A DNA stretch of 64,000 nt from assembly GCF_024502345.1 (NCBI RefSeq), contig NZ_JALDNN010000001.1. One strand, 5' to 3'. A program made the position numbers and the translations under genes. The stretch comes from Escherichia coli. Lineage in GTDB: Bacteria; Pseudomonadota; Gammaproteobacteria; Enterobacterales; Enterobacteriaceae. Under the pieces are notes generated by a model that was given only the letters and a program-made list of their open reading frames with translations, searched no databases and was not told the DNA's origin. This document shows positions 17,723 to 32,988 of this stretch, piece after piece. How positions within the stretch are numbered: the stretch's first letter is position 1; every line of letters starts with the position of its first letter.

Positions 17723-20637
<2,915 letters not shown>

Positions 20638-21694
20638 GGCTTTGTTGAATAAATCGAACTTTTGCTGAGTTGAAGGATCAGATCACGTATCTTCCCGACA
20701 ACGCAGACCGTTCCGTGGCAAAGCAAAAGTTCAAAATCACCAACTGGCCCACCTACAATAAAGCCCTCATCAACCGTGGCTCCATAACTTTCTGGCTGGA
20801 TGATGAAGCTATTCAGGCCTGGTATGAGTCAGCAACACCTTCTTCACGAGGCAGACCTCAGCGCTATTCTGACCTTGCCATCACGACTGTGCTGGTCATT
20901 AAACGCGTATTCAGGCTGACCCTGCGCGCTGCGCAGGGCTTTATTGATTCCATTTTTTCTCTGATGAACGTTCCGCTACGCTGCCCGGATTACAGCTGTG
21001 TCAGCAGGCGGGCAAAGTCGGTTAATGTCAGTTTCAAAACGCCCACCCGGGGTGAAATCGCACACCTGGTAATTGATTCCACCGGGCTGAAGGTCTTCGG
21101 TGAAGGCGAGTGGAAAGTCAAAAAGCATGGCCAGGAACGCCGCCGTATCTGGCGTAAGCTGCATCTCGCCGTTGACAGTAAAACACATGAAATCATCTGC
21201 GCTGACCTGTCGCTGAACAACGTTACGGACTCAGAGGCCTTCCCCGGGTTAATCCGGCAAACCCACCGGAAAATCAGGTCAGCCGCCGCCGATGGCGCTT
21301 ACGATACCCGGCTATGTCACGATGAACTGCGGCGTAAGAAAATCAGCGCGCTTATCCCTCCCCGAAAAGGTGCGGGTTACTGGCCCGGTGAATATGCAGA
21401 CCGTAACCGTGCAGTGGCTAATCAGCGAATGACCGGGAGTAATGCGCGGTGGAAATGGACAACAGATTACAACCGTCGCTCGATAGCGGAAACGGCGATG
21501 TACCGGGTAAAACAGCTGTTCGGGGGTTCACTGACACTGCGTGACTACGATGGTCAGGTTGCAGAGGCTATGGCCCTGGTACGAGCGCTGAACAAAATGA
21601 CGAAAGCAGGTATGCCTGAAAGCGTGCGTATTGCCTGAAAACACAACCCGCTACGGGGGAGACTTACCCGAAATCTGATTTATTCAACAAAGCC
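20638..21694 (+). mobile_element. IS903-group (IS5 family) insertion sequence, 1057 bp
   Basis: Perfect 18-bp terminal inverted repeats GGCTTTGTTGAATAAATC at 20638..20655 and 21677..21694; a single transposase ORF; the flanking 9-mers ACGAGATGT and GAGTGATGC do not match, so there is no target-site duplication. Confidence 0.9.
20670..21638 (+). CDS. IS903-type DDE transposase
   Basis: Translation ...WPTYNKALINRGSITFWLDDEAIQAWYESATPSSRGRPQRYSDLAITTVLVIKRVFRLTLRAAQGF... matches the remembered IS903/IS102 transposase; the true start may be internal to the listed ORF. Confidence 0.85.
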   Translation: MKDQITYLPDNADRSVAKQKFKITNWPTYNKALINRGSITFWLDDEAIQAWYESATPSSRGRPQRYSDLAITTVLVIKRVFRLTLRAAQGFIDSIFSLMNVPLRCPDYSCVSRRAKSVNVSFKTPTRGEIAHLVIDSTGLKVFGEGEWKVKKHGQERRRIWRKLHLAVDSKTHEIICADLSLNNVTDSEAFPGLIRQTHRKIRSAAADGAYDTRLCHDELRRKKISALIPPRKGAGYWPGEYADRNRAVANQRMTGSNARWKWTTDYNRRSIAETAMYRVKQLFGGSLTLRDYDGQVAEAMALVRALNKMTKAGMPESVRIA

Positions 21695-22038
21695 GAGTGA
21701 TGCGTTACTTTCCGGTAAAAATAAAAAGGTAAATAGAGCGCAATATCGGAAATAACATCGCCAGTTTCATTCAAAATCGCCCCCAGACGTGTTTGCTGAT
21801 TGCACTCACGCGCCAACATGCCATCCAGCGCATTGAGCGCCATACGGATAAAAAGCACGATGGGCAATAGCAAAAAGAGGATGGGTTGTGCCACCAACAC
21901 CAACAGCAATCCGGTAAAAAGAGAAAGCGCCAGTGCCGTAAGAGTGATGTGATTCGCTGTAACGTGGTGCTTATAAAGCCAAAACATCGTCGGCCTTAAC
22001 AGCGACTGAAAGAGCGGTTTTATCTGGTAGAGCGTCAT
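21695..22038 (-). pseudogene. ynbA: CDP-alcohol phosphatidyltransferase YnbA, N-terminal ~114 codons only, 3' end replaced by the IS
   Basis: MTLYQIKPLFQSLLRPTMFWLYKHH... membrane protein; the ORF runs into the IS right end, against a remembered 201-aa full length. Confidence 0.5.
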
Positions 22039-22336
22039 TTATCATTCCGTGATATTCAGTTTGCTCTATGGTGCATCAATTGTGATGGCGGAGATATCAC
22101 AACGCGGAGCATCAACGTAAATTCGGAATATATCAAGATGTGGTGGATGGTTTTCCTACACATCTGTTTGATTACCGACTGGATGTCAGTGAGATACCAT
22201 CGATCACTGTACGAATCAATGAATCCATTGCCTTTTCCCTGATTATCCAGCCGCAAATCCTGGCCTTAAACATATGCACTCCATGCCATTAAAAAAGAAA
22301 CAAAAGGGAAATGCATCTTTCCCTTTTGTATATTCG

Positions 22337-23197
22337 TTATTCTCGCGAAATACCATCCAACGTAGACAACACTTCCTCAGAAAGATGCAATTTTTCAGCA
22401 GCCATATTCTCCCGTAAATGCGCAACAGAAGACGTCCCTGGGATCAGCAAAATATTCGGTGAACGTTGTAACAGCCACGCCAGCGCCACCTGCATGGGTG
22501 TTGCACCCAGGCTCGCAGCAACATCGGAAAGTGTGGACGATTGCAGCGGTGTAAAGCCCCCGAGCGGGAAGAACGGCACGTAGGCAATGCCATCGTGGGC
22601 CAAAGCATCAATCATTGCATCATCAGCACGGTGCGCGATGTTGTATTCGTTTTGCACACAGACAATTTCGGCAATCTTGCGCGCCTCTGCAACCTGCGTC
22701 GGTGTGACATTGCTCAGGCCAATATGTTTTACCAGGCCTTGTTGTTGCATCTCTGCCAGCACGGTCAGGCTGGCCTCAATCGATCCTTCCGCTGGGCCAT
22801 GACCATCCCCCATCATAACGCGCAGGTTAACCACATCCAGCACGTCCAGCCCGAGATTACGTAGATTATCGTGCACCGCTTTTTGCAGCTCTGCCGGAGA
22901 AAATGCGGGCAACCAGGAAGCGTCCTCTCCACGCCGCGCACCAATTTTAGTGACAATTGTCAGGTCGTCAGAGTAAGGATAAAGCGCTTCGCGGATAATC
23001 TGATTGGTGACGTGCGGACCATAAAAGTCGCTGGTATCAATGTGAGTGACGCCCAATGCCAGCGCCTCACGCAGCACAGTTATAGCGACGTGGCGATCTC
23101 TTGGGGGACCAAAAACCCCAGGACCTGCCAGTTGCATCGCGCCATAACCAAGACGGTTAACGGATTTTGTACCGAGAGTAAATGTATTGCTGCTCAT
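22337..23197 (-). CDS. ydbC: Aldo-keto reductase YdbC
   Basis: 286 aa, MSSNTFTLGTKSVNRLGYGAMQLAG..., AKR family; followed by a hairpin plus T-run near 22296..22330. Confidence 0.85.
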   Translation of the reverse strand: MSSNTFTLGTKSVNRLGYGAMQLAGPGVFGPPRDRHVAITVLREALALGVTHIDTSDFYGPHVTNQIIREALYPYSDDLTIVTKIGARRGEDASWLPAFSPAELQKAVHDNLRNLGLDVLDVVNLRVMMGDGHGPAEGSIEASLTVLAEMQQQGLVKHIGLSNVTPTQVAEARKIAEIVCVQNEYNIAHRADDAMIDALAHDGIAYVPFFPLGGFTPLQSSTLSDVAASLGATPMQVALAWLLQRSPNILLIPGTSSVAHLRENMAAEKLHLSEEVLSTLDGISRE

Positions 23198-23425
23198 CGC
23201 ACCCTGCCCTGTAATAAAACGGATTGAGAAAAATCAGTATAGAAACGAAAAGAGATAAATAATGCGAAGGCGTAAACAAGATTACTGGATGAGTTGCTCT
23301 ATTGTCCTGAAAAACACAAAACAAAACGCGTCAAGTACCGCATCCGGCAATAAAAAACCGCAACCTGTATAGCGTTGCGGTTTAGGTATCACATGCTAAA
23401 AATTAGAATGTTCAGTATCTGGACG

Positions 23426-24016
23426 TTACTGTTTCGGTCGCAGATTCTCATCAAATACCAGACGTTTCCTGTTCGGTTCAACTTCCCGCAATGGCTCAAC
23501 TTGATGCAACGTCTGCTTACAACGAGTCACCAGCACCTGATACTCATGCGTACCCTGCTTTTTCCATGCCAGCTCCTGCTCACTGAGTTCACGAATCGCT
23601 TTCGCCGGGCTGCCGACAATCAGGTAATTGGCAGGCATTTCTGCTTTGGCTTTCACAAATGCGGATGCGCCAACAATGCTGTTCTCGCCAATCACCGCGC
23701 CGTCCATCACTACCGCGTTCATTCCCACTAATGCATTGCGGCGGATAATGCAACCATGAAGGATAGCGCTATGACCAATATGCCCATCTTCTTCCACGAC
23801 AGTATCCTGTTCGGGAAAACCGTGCATAACGCAATTATCCTGAATGTTCGCGCCATCTTTCACTACGATACGACCAAAATCGCCACGCAGATTGGCATTT
23901 GGCCCAACGTAAACGCCCTTGCCGAGAATAACATCGCCGATCAATACCGCTGTCGGATGGACAAAACTCTCTTCTGGCACAACCGGAGTCAGACCATCTA
24001 TCTGGTAAATTGGCAT
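23426..24016 (-). CDS. paaY: Hexapeptide-repeat thioesterase PaaY, apparently intact
   Basis: 196 aa, [34 protein letters not shown]... Confidence 0.85.
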
Positions 24017-24555
24017 AACGCCTCCTGTTCAATATTCAAACCGCCAAAACGTTGAAAATACAGGCTTCCCGGCGCAGGCAGTTCACCGACCGAGGTTTCA
24101 CCTTTTTCACTAACGAACGCTAAAGCAGCAGGCGCTACGCGCTGATAAATGTTGATACACAGCTGACGCGCCGTATGCCCTGCCCAGTGCGCCGGAAGCA
24201 ACTCCTCTGGCAACAATGGGTCTTTAAGGACGACACGGCGATAAAAATGGATCAGTAAAAGCTGAATATGAAATGCACGCTCCGGGGTTAACTCGTCTGC
24301 TGCCTCTTTTAACAGCGGCACCAGCGGGCGGAATGACTGAATAAAGGTTTCGTACATGGCATTTTGTTCAGTTAAATGCCAGCACTCTTCCACTCTGGCA
24401 CGCAGTGCTGCACGAGAAAGCGCCAGTGGTATTTGCGCTTCAAAACAAATCACGTTATCCGCCAGAAGGGCATTATTTAGCGCATTACGTGCGGCGGGAC
24501 GGTTAAGGGTCAGCAACAATACTTGTTGCTGACGGCTGACGATCAGTTCGCTCAT
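23998..24555 (-). pseudogene. Deletion-fusion remnant: first ~31 codons of paaF joined in frame to the C-terminal ~150 codons of paaX
   Basis: Translation MSELIVSRQQQVLLLTLNRPAARNALNNALL (PaaF N-terminus) continues directly into ADNVICFEAQIPLALSRAALRARVEECWHL... (PaaX C-terminal half). Confidence 0.6.
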
Positions 24556-25193
24556 GCCATCCCCTTCGCGTCAAAGTCAACCACCACATCGCTGGTCAGC
24601 GGCAGTGCCTGGCAACTCAACACATAGCCTGCGGCCAGTTCATCCGGTTCCAGACTGTAATTGGTTTCCATCGCCACTTTGCCACGCAGCACTTTGCATT
24701 TGCAGGTCGCACAGACGCCGCCTTTGCAGGCATAGGGCAGATCAGCCCCCTGGCGCAATGCCGCATCGAGAATGCTTTCATCGTCGGCATTAAGCACGAT
24801 TTCCCGATCCCGCCCATCCTGACGTACAGTCACTTTTTGTCCGTCACTTTGCACGTTAACGCTACGTTTGACGCGCGTGCCAGGCGTATTAAACCGCTCC
24901 AGATGAATGGTTTTATCTGGCATTCCCAGTGCTTTTAAGGCGGCTTCCGTCTCATCCATCATCGCCGCCGGACCACAAATAAATGCCTCATCATAAAGAC
25001 GAAAATTAATGAGCGAGGCCCCAAGTGACTGTAATTTTTCACCGTCAATACGCCCGTGAAGCAGATCGCTGTCGAGGGTTTCCTGACTGAAAATGCACAA
25101 CAACTGTAAACGCTGAGGATATTTGTCTTTCAGGTCTGCCAGTGCCTGGCGAAACATCATGCTCTGGCTGGTACGGTTACCGTAGATCAGGGT
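24552..25193 (-). pseudogene. paaE: paaE remnant, C-terminal ~200 codons (NAD-binding and 2Fe-2S ferredoxin domains), N-terminus deleted
   Basis: MMFRQALADLKDKYPQRLQLL...CKGGVCATCKCKV... matches the PaaE C-terminus; PaaE-like sequence ([11 protein letters not shown]) extends upstream to about 25193 and then stops. Confidence 0.6.
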
Positions 25194-25956
25194 GATGCCC
25201 GCACAAAACCAGCGACATGCTCTGCAACTGGCTTGTGCAGGCGGCGGTAGCCTTGCGGGAACGCTGGTGACGGCTGATCCGCAAATTGCGCGTCAGTTTA
25301 TTGCCGACGCGGCACGTACGCATGGGCGAATTCAGATCCTCAATGAAGAATCGGCAAAAGAATCCACCGGGCATGGCTCCCCACTGCCACAACTGTTACA
25401 TGGTGGGCCTGGTCGCGCAGGAGGCGGTGAAGAATTAGGTGGTTTACGAGCGGTGAAACATTACATGCAGCGAACCGCTGTTCAGGGTAGTCCGACGATG
25501 CTTGCCGCTATCAGTAAACAGTGGGTGCGCGGTGCGAAAGTCGAAGAAGATCGTATTCATCCGTTCCGCAAATATTTTGAGGAGCTGCAACCAGGCGACA
25601 GCCTGTTGACTCCCCGCCGCACAATGACAGAGGCCGATATTGTTAACTTTGCTTGCCTCAGCGGCGATCATTTCTATGCACATATGGATAAAATTGCTGC
25701 TGCCGAATCTATTTTTGGTGAGCGTGTGGTACATGGATATTTTGTGCTTTCTGCGGCTGCGGGTCTGTTTGTCGATGCCGGTGTCGGTCCGGTCATAGCT
25801 AACTACGGGCTGGAAAACTTGCGTTTTATCGAACCCGTAAAACCAGGCGATACCATCCAGGTGCGTCTCACCTGTAAGCGCAAGACGCTGAAAAAACAGC
25901 GTAGCGCAGAAGAAAAACCAACAGGTGTGGTGGAATGGGCGGTATGGGCACGCTAA
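25192..25956 (+). pseudogene. paaZ: paaZ remnant: end of the aldehyde-dehydrogenase domain plus the MaoC hotdog domain, without N-terminus or native C-terminal end
   Basis: [35 protein letters not shown]... [48 protein letters not shown]... corresponds to PaaZ from about residue 430. Confidence 0.6.
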
Positions 25957-26963
25957 CCTCACCAATTGCTCGTGGTAAAGATGCCCCGTCTAACGCAGTG
26001 CTCCTTAATGAAACCATCGCCGACTACACTGGCGTGCCGATGGAGATCCCTCGCGCTATCGCGGTATTTGAACGTTATGCCGGGCCGGAGTATAAGCATC
26101 AGGAAATGGGCCAGCCCAACGTCAGTACCGAACGCCGGGAGTTAGTGGTGCGCTGGATCAGTACAGTGGGTAACTATGACTACATTTTTGACTGGATCTT
26201 CCATGAAAACGGCACTATTGGCATTGATGCCGGTGCTACGGGCATCGAAGCGGTGAAAGGTGTTAAAGCGAAAACCATGCACGATGAGACGGCGAAAGAT
26301 GACACGCGCTACGGCACGCTTATCGATCACAATATCGTGGGTACTACACACCAACATATTTATAATTTCCGCCTCGATCTGGATGTAGATGGCGAGAATA
26401 ACAGCCTGGTGGCGATGGACCCAGTGGTAAAACCGAATACTGCCGGTGGCCCACGCACCAGTACCATGCAAGTTAATCAGTACAACATCGGCAATGAACA
26501 GGATGCCGCGCAGAAGTTTGATCCGGGCACGATTCGTCTGTTGAGTAACCCGAACAAAGAGAACCGCATGGGCAATCCAGTTTCCTATCAAATTATTCCT
26601 TATGCAGGTGGTACTCACCCGGTAGCAAAAGGTGCCCAGTTCGCGCCGGACGTGTGGATCTATCATCGTTTAAGCTTTATGGACAAGCAGCTTTGGGTAA
26701 CGCGTTATCATCCTGGCGAGCGTTTCCCGGAAGGCAAATATCCGAACCGTTCTACTCATGACACCGGTCTTGGACAATACAGTAAAGATAACGAGTCGCT
26801 GGACAACACCGACGCCGTTGTCTGGATGACCACCGGCACCACACATGTGGCCCGCGCCGAAGAGTGGCCGATTATGCCGACCGAATGGGTACATACTCTG
26901 CTTAAACCATGGAACTTCTTTGACGAAACGCCAACGCTAGGGGCGCTGAAGAAAGATAAGTGA
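25935..26963 (+). pseudogene. tynA: tynA remnant: C-terminal ~340 codons of the periplasmic copper/topaquinone amine oxidase, lacking signal peptide and N-terminal domains
   Basis: Contains the cofactor-precursor motif region TVGNYDYIFDW and the C-terminal catalytic-domain sequence; overlaps the paaZ remnant out of frame; convergent with feaB as in K-12. Confidence 0.65.
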
Positions 26964-26973
26964 TTGTTTCAGA

Positions 26974-27002
26974 CAAAAAAACGGCACCAGGTGCCGTTTT
27001 TT
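26974..27002. terminator. Bidirectional hairpin with A-run and T-run between the tynA remnant and feaB
   Basis: AAAAAAACGGCACC-AGGTGCCGTTTTTT. Confidence 0.55.
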
Positions 27003-27020
27003 ACTTATGAGCGAACCAGA

Positions 27021-28520
27021 TTAATACCGTACACACACCGACTTAGTTTCACACCAACCGTCCAGCCAGTCGGGGCCAAAATCACGGCCCGTTCCTGACT
27101 GCTTCATCCCACCAAACGGTAAGTTAGCGTCAATTAAGGTATGGCTGTTTACCCACACCGTCCCTGCCTGTAAGCGATCGCTATATTCCAGAGCCTGGGA
27201 GAGATTTTGCGTCCAGACACTGGCAGTTAAGCCATATTCCGTGTCGTTTGCCAGTTGTAACGCCTCTTCTCCATCCGCTACTCGCACCAGGTTTACCACC
27301 GGACCAAACACCTCTTCACGAGTTAAGCGCAATTTAGCATCGGGATTTACCACCAGCGTTGGCGCAACATAATACCCCTCTCCGGCTGGTCCATTCGACC
27401 CGCGAATCAGCTCTGCTTGCTGTGCCTGCGCATCGTCGAGGAATGAACACACTTTGTCGCAGTGCGCACGAGAAACCAAAGGGTTAATCTGTGCAACAGG
27501 TGACATCCCCGGTCCCACTTGCAACGATTTTACCGCCTGCTCAAATCCACTAACCAGCGTGTCAAACAACGGCGCTTCAATATAAATTCGCGAACTGGCG
27601 GCGCATACTTGCCCTTGATTCAGGAAGCTTCCGGTCATCAAGCCTTCAATAACCCATTGCGGATCAGCATCTTTTAATACAATTGCCGGGTTTTTACCGC
27701 CCAGTTCCAGCGTTACACGCGTTAAGTGATCAGCAGCAGTTCTGGCAATACCTTTTCCCGTCGCGGTTGAACCGGTAAAACTGATTTTCGCAACATGAGG
27801 ATGTGACGTCAGGGCCGCGCCGCATACAGCACCTGACCCGGTGACCACATTAAAAACGCCATCAGGGATACCAGCCTCGCTGGCCAGTTCCGCCACGCGC
27901 AACATCGTCAGTGGCGTGGTTTCCGAAGGCTTAATCACGATTGAACAGCCTGCTGCCAGTGCTGGCATCACCTTCCACATACCAATCATCAACGGAAAGT
28001 TCCATGGCACAATTCCCGCCACTACGCCAACCGGCTCTTTACGCGTCCAGGCCTGATAACGCGCCCCCTGGGGTAAGGGAATCGACAAGTCCAGCGTTTT
28101 ACCCGCGATTTTGGTCGTTAACCCGGCGGTATAACGCATCCAGTTCAGCGTACAGCCCACTTCAAAAGCACGGGAAATGGCAATTGACTTGCCTTGCTCC
28201 AGGGTTTCCAGTTGCGCCAGCTCCTCACTGTGCTGTTCCACCAGATCGGCAAAACGTAGCAGAATACGTTCACGCTCTGCGGGTAATCGCCCGGCCCAGC
28301 GACGCGAGACAAAGGCCCGCCAGGCAGACATGACTGCGTTATCTACATCCGCTTCGTTGGCATCAGCAGTAGACGCAATTTCTTGCCCGGTGGCCGGATC
28401 AAAGATCGCCAATCGTTTTTCACTTTGTGCGGGGCCTGGACGACCATCAATATAAAGACCGTGTTGACGATCGAGAAACTGTTGGACCTGGCTTAATACT
28501 GCTACATGCGGCTCTGTCAT
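27021..28520 (-). CDS. feaB: Phenylacetaldehyde dehydrogenase
   Basis: 499 aa from the second Met, [26 protein letters not shown]..., aldehyde dehydrogenase family. Confidence 0.9.
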
Positions 28521-28586
28521 CACTTTTCCTTATTATTTACCCAGTGTGATTTCAGTGTACGCAGCGACAAGAAAAGTCACTTTTTT

Positions 28587-28640
28587 CGCTGTGACATTCG
28601 CTTTGTCAGCTGTGACAAGCTCCGCAAATCGTGACAATAA
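28587..28640. promoter_or_regulatory. Three TGACA direct repeats at ~20-bp spacing upstream of feaB; candidate FeaR operator
   Basis: TGACA at 28591, 28612 and 28631; the middle copy fits TGACA-N8-AAA; located 70 to 115 bp upstream of the feaB start. Confidence 0.35.
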
Positions 28641-28755
28641 CCGCTTATGTCTCTATGCCTGACAAGACTTATTTCCTATAGTCAGGCTCATTAGCATCGT
28701 TTACTGCAACACAAATGCAACAATAAAAATACATTTCACAGAGCGAAAACGTGCC

Positions 28756-29661
28756 ATGAACCCCGCAGTGGATAATGAGTTTCAGCAATGGCTTTCCCAA
28801 ATCAATCAGGTATGCGGAAATTTTACCGGACACCTGCTGACTGAGCGTTACACGGGTGTACTGGATACGCATTTTGCCAAAGGACTAAAGCTGAGTACCG
28901 TGACAACCAGCGGGGTGAATTTATCCCGCACCTGGCAGGAAGTAAAAGGCAGCGACGATGCCTGGTTTTACACCGTTTTTCAGCTTAGTGGTCAGGCAAT
29001 AATGGAGCAGGATGAGCGTCAGGTGCAGATTGGCGCTGGCGATATTACGTTACTCGATGCCTCACGCCCCTGTTCGCTTTACTGGCAGGAGTCTTCTAAA
29101 CAGATTTCATTACTTTTGCCACGCACTCTGCTGGAACAATATTTTCCCCATCAAAAACCTGTCTGCGCAGAAAGACTGGACGCTGACTTACCCATGGTGC
29201 AACTCAGTCATCGCCTGTTACAGGAGAGCATGAATAATCCGGCACTTTCTGAAACAGAAAGTGAAGCTGCGCTACAGGCGATGGTGTGTCTGCTGCGCCC
29301 GGTACTTCATCAGCGGGAATCTGTTCAACCTCGTCGTGAACGTCAGTTTCAAAAAGTGGTTACGTTGATAGACGATAATATTCGCGAAGAGATATTACGC
29401 CCGGAGTGGATAGCCGGAGAGACAGGTATGTCAGTACGTAGTTTGTACCGAATGTTTGCCGATAAAGGTTTGGTGGTCGCGCAATATATTCGTAACCGTC
29501 GTCTCGATTTTTGTGCAGATGCGATTCGCCATGCCGCAGATGATGAAAAACTGGCAGGCATCGGCTTTCATTGGGTATTTTCTGACCAGAGTCATTTTTC
29601 AACGGTATTTAAGCAACGCTTTGGGATGACGCCAGGCGAGTATCGACGTAAATTCCGCTAA
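28756..29661 (+). CDS. feaR: AraC-family activator of the tynA/feaB pathway
   Basis: 301 aa with a C-terminal AraC-type HTH; divergent from feaB. Confidence 0.9.
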   Translation: MNPAVDNEFQQWLSQINQVCGNFTGHLLTERYTGVLDTHFAKGLKLSTVTTSGVNLSRTWQEVKGSDDAWFYTVFQLSGQAIMEQDERQVQIGAGDITLLDASRPCSLYWQESSKQISLLLPRTLLEQYFPHQKPVCAERLDADLPMVQLSHRLLQESMNNPALSETESEAALQAMVCLLRPVLHQRESVQPRRERQFQKVVTLIDDNIREEILRPEWIAGETGMSVRSLYRMFADKGLVVAQYIRNRRLDFCADAIRHAADDEKLAGIGFHWVFSDQSHFSTVFKQRFGMTPGEYRRKFR

Positions 29662-29698
29662 CTAATTGGCGTTGTGTGTACTGCAACGCCAATTAGTT
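29660..29698. terminator. 15-bp perfect inverted repeat directly after the feaR stop
   Basis: AACTAATTGGCGTTG-tgtgtactg-CAACGCCAATTAGTT. Confidence 0.45.
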
Positions 29699-29832
29699 AA
29701 AACAAATATTTGACTATGCATTTTTCAGGGCGAAAGGCAATTTGACAGGAGTTTTTGAATATTCACCTTGTTTCAGGAAAATAGATCAATCGCTTTCTCC
29801 TGTAGCGTTATCCCGATATTGCGGTTTTGCTA

Positions 29833-30159
29833 TTAAAATTTTCGCACCCATTTACCGTTTATCCCTTGTACATATTCCCCCGGTTTGGCCCGAGCTACGA
29901 GCTTTTGCCCGGCGAGTTTCGCGATATCATCTACAGACACATTATTTTGCTTTGCCAGTTGTTGGTAACTCGCTTTACGTTCGGCATTAATGTCGGTTAC
30001 TAATTTCTCTGTTTCAGCATCCGTTTTCAGCGCAACCAGATAACCATAAAATGTTTCCCCGACCCGCCCCTGCGTTCTGGCTTCATCCAGAGTCAATGCC
30101 ATTACATTGCTGCTTACCAGCCCAACAAGAAACGCACAAAGAAGTAATGTTTTCTTCAT
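29833..30159 (-). CDS. ydbL: DUF1318 periplasmic protein YdbL
   Basis: 108 aa from the internal Met with signal peptide MKKTLLLCAFLVGLVSSNVMA. Confidence 0.75.
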   Translation of the reverse strand: MKKTLLLCAFLVGLVSSNVMALTLDEARTQGRVGETFYGYLVALKTDAETEKLVTDINAERKASYQQLAKQNNVSVDDIAKLAGQKLVARAKPGEYVQGINGKWVRKF

Positions 30160-30166
30160 CATCGCC

Positions 30167-30352
30167 TCAGAAAAGATCGCTACGAGTTTCAAGCAGCTCT
30201 TCGACATCTTTGTCTGCCTTGATGATGATCTCATGCTCAATTTTAACGTTCATATTGATAGTGATCGGTTCCTTGGGCGCAGCGACTTCAATACGCGGCG
30301 TACAGGCAGCCAGCATAAAAGATGACGTCAACGCAGCCAGTAAAATTTTCAT
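30167..30352 (-). CDS. ynbE: Small lipoprotein YnbE
   Basis: 61 aa, MKILLAALTSSFMLAACTP lipobox; its start overlaps the ydbH stop. Confidence 0.75.
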   Translation of the reverse strand: MKILLAALTSSFMLAACTPRIEVAAPKEPITINMNVKIEHEIIIKADKDVEELLETRSDLF

Positions 30353-32988
30353 TGTTTTTCCTCACACTCTTTTCCTTGCGGACAGTCATTTCCCGGCAGA
30401 CGTGCGTTCTGCTCCAACCATGCCTGGAGATTATCGCCAAAGCGTAAACTGCGCCACAGCGTAAAAATATTCTCTTCATGATGGTAATTAAGGTTTACCG
30501 TACCGCTTTTACCATCAACGCGACTGGTACCTGTAATGTTGGCCTGCATGGTTAATAAACCGAGATTATCTAAATTAATATTTGTCGATGAACGGCTAAT
30601 TTCCATATAGCGCAACCAGTTAATTGCTGAACCCGCAGTCATATTGTCTTTCACCACCGCATCTGCGGTGTCTTTATCCAGCCGCAAGGTCATTGGCCCG
30701 CTATTTGCCAGCCAACCATCTTTCACTATCCATTTTTCGTTGTTTAGCCATAACGGCAATGCACCACTAAATGCCCCGGACATGGCGAATTGTTTCGGAT
30801 TGACGGCGCTAACCAGTTCGCTGGATGAGAGATTATTCAGCCGCAACAGCGCCGGGTCATGTTGCGGCATACGTAATTGTTTCATCAGTACGTTACCGCC
30901 TAACACATCGACGCTAACATCAGTCAACAGCAAGGGTTCTTCTTCAGTCCACGGATAACGCCCTTGCAAATCAGCCGTAATATTTTTCGCTGTCACCAGA
31001 TTAATCACTTCGGCAATTCGCAACGTAACGGGGCCGCGAGTCCCCAGATGCCAGGCTCCATCGGCAAAACGGAAAGGCAGGACAAAATCGACACCGTTAA
31101 CCTGATTATCTGGCATCCAGGCACTACCGCCTTTCAACACGCCGTGCCCTCCCGCGCGGAATCCTTGTTCAGGCGCAGCAGAAAATGCAACCTGAGCATA
31201 CAGTTCACCATCGCGTAAGTTCATCTTCCAGTCGGGTGGCACCAGCGGCTGGAATACAGTCAGTGATTGTTTTGGCCACCAGGCGTTACCGCGCAGACGA
31301 ATACCGTCCCAGCGACCATTTACCCGAACCGGGCCAATCTCACCAGCATGTAAATCGCCTTTAAAGAGGAAATACGTCGGATCGCGCCCATCGACGCTAA
31401 ATTTTAAGGTTGATGGCGGTAACACACTGCCGCCAGTGAACAGCGTTTGCCCGGCGTCCAGTGACAGCGCGCCGCTGAAGGAGGGATGCTGTGCGTCACG
31501 TACCCAGACGACGGGCTTGTCGAGAATTAATCGCGGCTTTTCTACCGTCATCGTACCGTATTGTAACTGGTCGAAACCGGTGGAGAGGTCGGTCAGCGTA
31601 ATCGTGCTGTCATGCCATTCACCTTTTCCTGCGACATCCCAGGTGGCATTCATCGGTGTAAAACTGCCTTTTCCCCAGTAGCGCCACTGCCAGCGGCCCG
31701 CGTCAGGGAGAAAATCATTCGCCAGCCCATCCATATGCAGCACGAAATCGCCCAGTTCATTTTCATGCGCCTGCAAAATGGCCTGCAAACGTCCGTCAAC
31801 ACCACGTTGGGTGACTTTTACACCCGCTAAAGGCCAGCGGATTTCATCGATGTCCAGCGAATCGATGACTCTTCCCTTTGAACGAAGTAACGCGCCTGGC
31901 TCAAAGGCCAGCGTTGGGTCAGTCAGACTTCCACTTAGCTGCGCGGGTAAGCGGGCATATAAAATGAGGTCCGCCTGTTTCGCTTCACCGGTCAGCTGCA
32001 GAGGCAGCTGGCTGTTATCCATGCTTAATTTTCCTGGGCCAAAATTTAGCACCGCGTTGCCTTTACCCGCTTGCCCCTGGGTCAGCACACTCAGTCGTCC
32101 GCTGATCAGAGCGTTCTCAAGCCCTGCCTGCCAGTTGTCGACTTTGACACCCAGTCGGCCACTCAAAGGAAAACCTGCATACGGCCAACTCCAGCGACCA
32201 TCGCTTACGGTCAATTGTTGACGAGTAATTTGCCACGGCAAATCGAGCAACGGATCGCCGTTATCCCGTGCCAGCACAATCAATTGCCCGCTATTTTCCT
32301 GCCAGTCCAGCTCTGCATCCACCAGTGACGGTTCCTGCGGCAAGTTTAACGTCGCAGTAGCATGCCCACTTACAGGAAGTCCATCCGGCACGAGCGGCAT
32401 AGTAAATTCCCCCACCAGTTTAACCGGCGGCTGATTTTCAAACGCGACGACATCCAGTTCGCTGACTGTAAGTTGTTGCCCTTTCAGCTGGCCTTGAAAT
32501 TTAACTTTTTCGCCCTGATAACGCAGTTGCTGGATATTAGAGGTTAATGCGAGAGAGAGTTTTCCCTGCCATTCCTGCCAGGGAGAAAAAATCAGTTTAT
32601 CGATATTGATCCAGGTATTAGGCAGCATGGACTGCCACTGCGCGAGGGTTTTTGGAGCAGCTGGCGATTGCTCCGTCTGCGGCAATTTCGCCAGACAAGC
32701 AGAATCAAGTTCTACCATGCCGACGTTCAATAACCAGCGGCTGGGATGTGAAAGGCTGGCGTTGGTGATATGCGCAAGCTGACAATCTCCCACCAGATAA
32801 CGGAGATCGGGAATGATTAAACCTTTACGCGTAATGCGTGGGCTTTCATCTAATGCAATACGTGTCCCGAGCGGTAGCCAGATGCCCGCCAGCGTGGGAA
32901 CCCACAGCCCGAGCGTCATCAGCAGCGTCAACGGCACAAGAATAATCAGTAATAACAGCGCGAGAACGGCTTTATATTTACCCAGCAT
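30349..32988 (-). CDS. ydbH: Large AsmA-like / DUF748 membrane-anchored protein YdbH
   Basis: 879 aa with an N-terminal transmembrane anchor; first gene of the apparent ydbH-ynbE-ydbL operon. Confidence 0.85.
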   Translation of the reverse strand: MLGKYKAVLALLLLIILVPLTLLMTLGLWVPTLAGIWLPLGTRIALDESPRITRKGLIIPDLRYLVGDCQLAHITNASLSHPSRWLLNVGMVELDSACLAKLPQTEQSPAAPKTLAQWQSMLPNTWINIDKLIFSPWQEWQGKLSLALTSNIQQLRYQGEKVKFQGQLKGQQLTVSELDVVAFENQPPVKLVGEFTMPLVPDGLPVSGHATATLNLPQEPSLVDAELDWQENSGQLIVLARDNGDPLLDLPWQITRQQLTVSDGRWSWPYAGFPLSGRLGVKVDNWQAGLENALISGRLSVLTQGQAGKGNAVLNFGPGKLSMDNSQLPLQLTGEAKQADLILYARLPAQLSGSLTDPTLAFEPGALLRSKGRVIDSLDIDEIRWPLAGVKVTQRGVDGRLQAILQAHENELGDFVLHMDGLANDFLPDAGRWQWRYWGKGSFTPMNATWDVAGKGEWHDSTITLTDLSTGFDQLQYGTMTVEKPRLILDKPVVWVRDAQHPSFSGALSLDAGQTLFTGGSVLPPSTLKFSVDGRDPTYFLFKGDLHAGEIGPVRVNGRWDGIRLRGNAWWPKQSLTVFQPLVPPDWKMNLRDGELYAQVAFSAAPEQGFRAGGHGVLKGGSAWMPDNQVNGVDFVLPFRFADGAWHLGTRGPVTLRIAEVINLVTAKNITADLQGRYPWTEEEPLLLTDVSVDVLGGNVLMKQLRMPQHDPALLRLNNLSSSELVSAVNPKQFAMSGAFSGALPLWLNNEKWIVKDGWLANSGPMTLRLDKDTADAVVKDNMTAGSAINWLRYMEISRSSTNINLDNLGLLTMQANITGTSRVDGKSGTVNLNYHHEENIFTLWRSLRFGDNLQAWLEQNARLPGNDCPQGKECEEKQ

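Follow-up and report, generated by a model that had tools for sequence, protein, structure and literature searches.

The stretch of Escherichia coli DNA analyzed here (64,000 nt of contig NZ_JALDNN010000001.1, assembly GCF_024502345.1; referred to as the window) carries, between paaY and the phenylethylamine genes feaB and feaR, the remains of the paa/tynA catabolic locus. Three internal deletion junctions, designated J1, J2, and J3, have left a mosaic of gene remnants with two retained islands between the junctions. Very probably, this is a decaying catabolic locus of one natural E. coli clone that was eroded by successive short-homology deletions in at least two steps. The value of the case is that the dismantling of the locus can be followed, first hit and then useless neighbors, and that an intermediate persists within the clone.

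Structure of the paa/tynA Locus

The intact locus of K-12 MG1655 (L003) was used as the reference for a blastn analysis of window positions 20001-31000, and residue ranges were determined by protein alignment. The window matched K-12 in four collinear blocks. Block 1 (window 23425-24464) corresponds to K-12 1,465,062-1,464,023 and comprises paaY and the 3' half of paaX. Block 2 (window 24463-25195; K-12 1,457,589-1,456,857) consists of the first 93 nt of paaF and the 3' 644 nt of paaE, block 3 (window 25193-25944; K-12 1,452,435-1,451,684) is a 752 nt internal part of paaZ, and block 4 (window 25940-31000; K-12 1,450,099 onward) harbors the last 1,024 nt of tynA followed by feaB, feaR, and ydbL. 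Both methods confirmed the original prediction that the locus is a mosaic of deletion remnants. The junctions had been placed at about 24460, 25192, and 25940, which was right to within a few bases (24463/24464, 25193-25195, and 25940-25944). The K-12 gene order assumed there, with tynA after paaY, was incorrect; tynA adjoins paaZ, and the count of three junctions is unaffected by this.

At J1 (24463..24464), 6,433 bp are deleted (K-12 1,457,590-1,464,022), comprising the rest of paaF, paaGHIJK, and the 5' half of paaX. The ORF (open reading frame) list, blastn, and the protein alignment all revealed a fusion of PaaF residues 1-31 to PaaX residues ~163-316, which forms an ORF of 185 aa on the minus strand (23998..24555). 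The fusion keeps the PaaX_C domain (PF08223 match on the identical protein); neither the winged-helix N-terminus nor the Px promoter is left.

At J2 (25193..25195), paaE and paaZ are joined head to head, and 4,421 bp are deleted (K-12 1,452,436-1,456,856). The loss includes the 5' part of paaE, paaDCBA, the divergent Pa/Pz promoter region, and paaZ codons 1-402. According to blastn and protein alignment, codons ~143-356 of paaE remain on the minus strand (24552..25195). The ORF in this remnant (24552-25160) starts at Met155, and only the 2Fe-2S ferredoxin domain of the protein (residues 155-356; PF00111 Fer2 match) is left. On the other side of J2, the paaZ remnant (25193..25944, plus strand) covers codons 403-653 of 681 in the protein alignment, and not a segment from about residue 430 as had been assumed. 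It corresponds to the MaoC hydratase domain without its last 28 residues.

At J3 (25940..25944), paaZ and tynA are joined on the same strand with loss of 1,584 bp (K-12 1,450,100-1,451,683). The deleted segment starts in the tail of paaZ, spans the intergenic region between the two genes, in which the tynA promoter is located, and takes in tynA codons 1-417. Past J3, the paaZ frame enters tynA out of frame and reaches a stop 12 nt further on, at 25956, so that the paaZ ORF (25192-25956) closes with three foreign codons. The tynA remnant (25940..26963, plus strand) comprises codons 418-757 by protein alignment. PF01179 was its only domain match and the N1-N3 domains were not matched. Signal peptide and N-terminal domains are missing, and an ATG that occurs at 25935 by chance serves as the called start of the ORF. 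The junctions had been described as in frame, which holds for J1 and neither for J2, where divergent genes meet head to head, nor for the out-of-frame J3.

Sequences at the Deletion Junctions

For reading the junctions we used proxies of the parental sequence, L013 for J1 and the undeleted loci L022 and L029, which share the haplotype of the window, for J2 and J3. The paaZ remnant is identical to both L022 and L029 at 752/752 nt. Each of the three junctions had a short direct repeat at both parental ends, of which one copy was kept: CA for J1 (CGCCA/CGTCA, 4/5 match), TGA for J2, and an exact CGGTA for J3. The blocks abut with an overlap of 2-5 bp, and no filler DNA, insertion sequence (IS) end, IS terminal repeat, target duplication, or long repeat was present at J1, J2, or J3. 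There were no transfer RNA (tRNA) genes in window 15-35 kb, that is, within up to 10 kb around the locus. The ORF list of window 20-31 kb contained no integrase ORF, and no att-like flanking repeats were seen at the junctions. The folding energies at the six breakpoints were unremarkable with regard to hairpins or other secondary structure. Chi sites and GGTNACC restriction sites were considered as a cause of the breakpoint positions and rejected, as the positions do not fit.

The window resembles short-homology illegitimate recombination (microhomology-mediated deletion) in E. coli in the 2-5 bp direct repeats at the parental ends, the single copy left behind, and the lack of recombinase sites. 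What short-homology deletion alone would not predict is the recurrence of some endpoints at the paa/tynA locus, which is far too precise for it.

Allele B and the Succession of the Deletions

The same three junctions were found by exact-protein look-up in NCBI assembly GCA_050022275.1 (L004/L012/L015), with 100% identity across the junctions. Several contigs from the European Nucleotide Archive (ENA) and Logan (L005, L007, L009), which derive from different samples, also showed the same structure with 100% identity. Thus, the check for assembly collapse, which had been advised together with the original prediction, excluded an artefact. Overall, the remnant proteins were present in a handful of contigs only. 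A Shigella origin of the window found no support; it represents ordinary E. coli sequence, and its best match among complete genomes was 99.4% identical.

A second allele, designated allele B, carries J2 and J3 together with intact paaF-paaK, paaX, and paaY. It was found in L013, L014, L016, L017, and L018, which represent at least five samples, and over more than 14 kb its flanks match the window with 99.94-100% identity. When the single-nucleotide polymorphisms (SNPs) within the clone were polarised against the outgroups L022, L029, L002, and K-12, four derived SNPs were common to the window, L004, and L014, one of the strains with allele B; the remaining strains with this allele had the ancestral state. 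Since these derived SNPs nest the window and L004 with L014, J1 was the last event and occurred on the allele-B background. J1 is therefore later than J2/J3, and at least two deletion events took place. Three separate deletions had been predicted; the three internal deletion junctions stand, and the number of events demonstrated is at least two. The clade is very shallow, with 4 SNPs in about 9 kb.

Undeleted loci of the same haplotype are represented by L022, a Logan contig that is collinear with K-12 from paaE to feaB, and by L029, which is the bovine strain USMARC-49610 with a complete genome. In L022, paaA and paaZ have each lost 2 bp (positions 2725 and 4655), which shifts the reading frame; the lesion in paaZ lies 25 bp before the right end of J2. 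This hints at frameshifts as initial inactivating hits before the deletions; L022 is a single contig, and L029 does not have them. An internal stop was observed in tynA of L029.

We propose that in a first step J2 and J3 would have removed paaZ(5')-paaABCD-paaE(5') and paaZ(3')-tynA(5'). Both the phenylacetyl-CoA epoxidase branch and the amine oxidase would thereby have been inactivated, and the Pa/Pz and tynA promoters would have been lost. In a second step, J1 would have removed paaF-K and paaX, by then useless and promoterless, in a sub-branch of the clone. The deletions may be of the illegitimate type, by replication slippage or end joining. The molecular mechanism of each deletion is something we infer, as is the view of the later losses as relaxed selection after the first hit.

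Some observations weigh against this sequence of steps. No trustworthy allele with only J2 or only J3 was found, so that J2 and J3 may have arisen in one complex event. The only contig with J2 and without J3 (L023) switches haplotype ~155 bp past the junction, which is best interpreted as a chimera. A look-up with a constructed 278-aa PaaZ' protein for J2-only or J3-only alleles returned only the undeleted, frameshifted L022 and the chimeric L023, and two JGI (Joint Genome Institute) metagenome scans with 29-31-mers of the junctions yielded no matches. A simple linear order is also at odds with two metagenome contigs (L006 and L008) in which J1 is present and paaE runs on past the J2 site. Furthermore, the sequence fits both neutral decay and selection for loss, and the reuse of the paaZ breakpoint of J3 by an unrelated allele hints that the choice of breakpoints was not purely a matter of random microhomology.

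Alternative Explanations

J2 and J3, or all three junctions, could stem from one complex replicative event, in which a stalled fork switched template twice, as in microhomology-mediated break-induced replication or fork stalling and template switching (MMBIR/FoSTeS). We consider this possible, although on balance not probable. The constant co-occurrence of J2 and J3 in trustworthy contigs and the microhomology of 2-5 bp at all junctions would be expected from such an event. The same is true for the unrelated L030, in which an island of 103 bp lies between two junctions, an arrangement that is hard to obtain by two independent deletions. However, J1 is demonstrably later than J2/J3, so that no single event can account for all three junctions, and the paaZ island is, at 752 bp, big enough to remain by chance.

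The paa pathway can be toxic: without working PaaZ, the epoxidase yields reactive epoxide/oxepin-CoA (coenzyme A) dead-end products. The losses may therefore have been positively selected, with a defective PaaZ leading to such products and TynA generating H2O2 and phenylacetaldehyde, so that a strain would benefit from deleting paaABCDE and tynA. The paaZABCDE(-tynA) module was indeed lost repeatedly and independently with paaF-K kept, namely in HS-01, L030, L031, L033/37, L034, and a mastitis clade (PMC4951805), and the undeleted L022 was already frameshifted by 2 bp in paaA and paaZ. On the other hand, these frameshifts were seen in a single contig and not in its relative L029, and recurrent loss may equally stem from mutational hot spots. 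We regard positive selection as plausible, although somewhat unlikely.

Another way to obtain the triple allele would be homologous recombination in the 733-bp paaF'/paaE' segment common to two alleles from different strains, one carrying J1 alone and the other J2+J3. L006 and L008, which show J1 with an uninterrupted paaE, could represent the first of these alleles. Their extra 499 bp differ from L022 at 6 positions and from L029 at 9 positions, pointing to a foreign haplotype of the paaE 5' part, and K-12-type sequence is matched without a difference over the 206 bp preceding J2, a stretch longer than the assembler k-mer. Both are MEGAHIT metagenome contigs. They are probably chimeric, because a foreign haplotype is joined to the clone via a stretch that is identical in many strains. 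No isolate carried J1 alone, and the nested SNP pattern fits deletion in situ. A recombinational origin is thus quite improbable.

IS-mediated adjacent deletion or excision of a genomic island by a site-specific recombinase appears still more improbable. An IS903-type element 2.3 kb away did delete ynbC'-ynbB-ynbA'. Furthermore, draft contigs of other strains (L048, GCA_014816465.1; L050, GCA_052646035.1) end 0-2 nt from the right end of J2 in paaZ (window 25193-25195), as would be the case at a repeat or at an alternative junction. However, an IS end abuts a deletion only at ynbC'-ynbB-ynbA' and not at J1-J3, where terminal repeats and target duplications as well as tRNA, integrase, and att-like repeats are lacking, and sister strains in which the junctions are already present lack the IS903 element. 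Assembly artefacts by collapsed or mis-joined contigs can practically be dismissed, given the 100% identical junctions in an independent NCBI assembly and in ENA/Logan contigs and the absence of a repeat at the junctions that could cause collapse.

Functional Consequences

The original prediction that all ring-hydroxylating and beta-oxidation functions are removed was borne out, as the epoxidase genes and paaF-paaK are deleted. The lost parts comprise the epoxidase (paaABCD and the PaaE N-terminus), the aldehyde-dehydrogenase domain of the ring-opening enzyme PaaZ, paaF-paaK with the beta-oxidation-like steps and the ligase, the DNA-binding half of PaaX (residues 1-162), and the N-terminal 417 residues of the periplasmic amine oxidase TynA. 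Three promoter regions are also deleted, namely the divergent Pz/Pa region, Px upstream of paaX, and PtynA in the paaZ-tynA intergenic region, and no promoter-like site was found within 24016-26963.

Of a complete epoxidase PaaABCDE, paaE codons ~143-356 are the sole remainder. The window lacks a full-length bifunctional PaaZ (aldehyde dehydrogenase and MaoC), and its remnant has neither start region nor promoter. Apart from 31 paaF codons, the lower pathway paaFGHIJ and the ligase gene paaK are missing, all of which are present in the sister allele B. A PaaX repressor with its N-terminal domain is lacking, and so is an exported full-length copper amine oxidase TynA, given the loss of signal peptide, N1-N3 domains, and promoter. 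Judged from their sequences, the remnants would be unable to work as the original enzymes, being promoterless pieces, an exported enzyme minus its signal peptide, and a repressor minus its DNA-binding domain. The four ORFs at 23998-26963 should be annotated as remnants and not as genes.

The genes on both sides of the remnants are intact. The gene of the thioesterase PaaY (23426..24016, minus strand) encodes 196 aa, of which 196/196 positions aligned and 192 were identical to K-12 PaaY, and a Hexapep Pfam match was obtained in identical contigs; the ORF is whole and its Px promoter is deleted. FeaB (27021..28523, minus strand) is identical to the K-12 protein at 499/499 aa, and FeaR (28756..29661, plus strand; 301 aa) at 298/301 aa. 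The protein alignments agreed with the earlier view that feaB and feaR are intact, that the N-terminus of the amine oxidase is gone, and that feaRB are orphaned. In the pathway, feaB and feaR have lost both the amine oxidase that precedes them and the paa steps that follow. The genes feaB, feaR, and paaY thus survive as orphans. The strain is predicted to be unable to use phenylacetate or 2-phenylethylamine.

Comparison to Other E. coli Strains

We surveyed 5,426 complete E. coli genomes for the share kept of the 16-kb tynA-paaY region. At least 80% of the region was kept in 3,098 genomes, 1,305 genomes had no match at all, and about 1,000 genomes showed partial remnants of many kinds. J1, J2, and J3 were each absent from all of these genomes. 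It had been assumed that piecemeal loss is unusual for this catabolic island and complete excision the norm. The survey, with about 1,000 partial loci next to 1,305 empty ones, contradicts this, and a mosaic paa region has been described before (PMC4951805).

According to that study, the paa region is heterogeneous and mosaic in E. coli, and independent internal deletions left feaRB orphaned. In a phylogroup A clade from bovine mastitis (ECC-Z, G169, G250, and others), tynA and paaZABCDE were scored absent, whereas feaR, feaB, and paaFGHIJKXY were kept; further internal deletions were reported for G246 and, as a paaA-paaK fusion, for DEC6A/B (PMC4951805). The gene content of the mastitis clade equals that of allele B (J2+J3), and it is plausible, by gene content only, that the two are alike. 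The window differs from this clade by the additional 6.4-kb J1 deletion, which removed paaF-K and half of paaX. While the presence and absence of genes was scored in PMC4951805, the breakpoints were mapped here.

Other alleles of the same locus include the strain 165 type (paaX'/paaZ tail), O145:H28 (paaK'/paaF), HS-01 (paaE'/paaZ'), 042 (paaX'/feaR'), ST131 (paaY'/feaR'), and GF31 (paaK/feaR'). Like the window, they have truncated genes left by internal deletions, the ends of which share a few bp of microhomology. However, each of them has one deletion, whereas the window has three junctions and two islands. Other alleles with several junctions were also observed. L030 (SRR31950677) keeps its 103-bp island, derived from paaA, between two junctions, and L031 (GCA_043360805.1) has a second deletion of 498 bp across the feaB-feaR intergenic region. 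L030, L031, and L036 share a nearly identical paaE-paaH haplotype and carry three different rearrangements.

It is well established that inactivated bacterial genes are eroded piecemeal by deletions (PMC2916853, PMC2817411). The clone resembles this pattern in its nested series, which leads from the undeleted L022/L029 to J2+J3, then to J1, and to the nearby damage by IS903. It is unlike usual pseudogene erosion in the kilobase size of the deletions and in the very shallow clade, which does not represent a long evolutionary time. The window is a new allele of a known type of event, namely ordinary gene decay at a deletion-prone locus, and reveals no new system.

Reused Breakpoints

The one lead of wider reach, which stands outside the verdict on decay of the locus, is the reuse of breakpoints. 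In this analysis, K12rc coordinates run along the reverse complement of L003. The paaZ end of J3, a GTA/GAGG site at K-12 1,451,684, is also where the widespread strain-165-type deletion (L002, NZ_CP020509) ends on its right, with the opposite side of the site kept. The left end of the same deletion and the paaX end of J1 (window 24457-24464) are 7 bp apart. The window and the strain-165 type have an identical paaX' haplotype (0/439 mismatches) with flanks that are 1-3% different. A recombination-tract boundary in paaX behind the position of J1 was considered and rejected, as the SNP density is unchanged there. The paaE end of J2 lies 16 bp from the breakpoint of HS-01.

An exact look-up of the 201-aa PaaE' ORF, which catches any lesion in an 84-bp range, revealed at least six structurally different rearrangements (deletions or inversions) ending at the same 1-3 nt, ...GGTACGGTT(A)(C). 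This site is the center of a 13-nt quasi-palindrome, TACGGT-T-ACCGTA (TACGGTTACCGTA), at K-12 ~1,456,873 and window 25177-25179. The alleles (L010, L030, L031, L033, L034, L036, and L037) derive from unrelated samples on at least four haplotype backgrounds, and the partners at the other end are paaA/paaZ, paaZ, tynA (twice), feaR, and inverted paaI. As a control, the corresponding look-up with the C-terminal PaaZ ORF yielded lesions spread over about 130 bp. Since these control lesions were scattered, the look-up method does not create the clustering. J2 of the window is off the paaE hot spot and keeps the whole palindrome, so that only J3 uses a reused site. Junctions of the L033 and L034 types were absent from the complete genomes.

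A third site, GTGGATA/GCCGGAG in feaR (K-12 ~1,446,629; window ~29407-29412), is the right end of three alleles within ~3 nt. The left partners are paaE (L033/L037), paaK (GF31, L042), and paaY' (ST131, L044), in different haplotypes including phylogroup B2. E. coli 042 has a different feaR breakpoint.

Deletion endpoints in the fea-tynA-paa region may be non-random, with a few nucleotide-precise sites in paaE, feaR, and paaZ reused across unrelated lineages with variable partners; we put this forward tentatively and consider it rather unlikely. If true, it would imply site-specific initiation of rearrangements, for example, at a recurrent nick, break, or fork-stall site, which would be undescribed for this locus, and the mosaic of the window would partly be its product. 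If the reuse is borne out at the pan-genome scale, a non-essential locus would be available for directly testing what causes illegitimate-recombination hot spots. Among structural features, Chi sites, restriction sites, and IS elements, no explanation for the reused sites was found, nor did we find an account in the literature. A further candidate hot spot in paaX, suggested by many PaaX_C proteins of ~151-156 aa, was rejected as an effect of ORF calling: these proteins represent one allele with differing called starts, together with scattered 1-bp frameshifts.

Further Decay in the Vicinity and in Relatives

A complete IS903-type element of 1,057 bp is located at window 20638-21694, with the inverted repeats GGCTTTGTTGAATAAATC... 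It replaces 1,320 bp comprising the 5' end of ynbC, ynbB, and the 3' part of ynbA (ynbC'-ynbB-ynbA') and is not present in the sister strains L004, L013, and L014. In the metagenome contig L006, the same IS end lies 189 bp deeper in ynbA, which suggests stepwise IS-adjacent deletion.

Damage in feaR was seen in relatives and other strains. The sister allele-B strain L014 (SRR24000611) has a feaR frameshift at the equivalent of window 29169-29171, and feaR of O145 strain C325 (L001) contains an internal stop. Beyond the intact feaB and feaR of the window, ydbL-ynbE-ydbH follow from left to right. At window 22137-22244, pdxI adjoins ynbA, with ~106 bp of unmatched sequence between them, and ydbD is missing. 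The loss of ydbD was rejected as part of the local decay, since it is a common polymorphism that is found in 482 of the 5,426 complete genomes.

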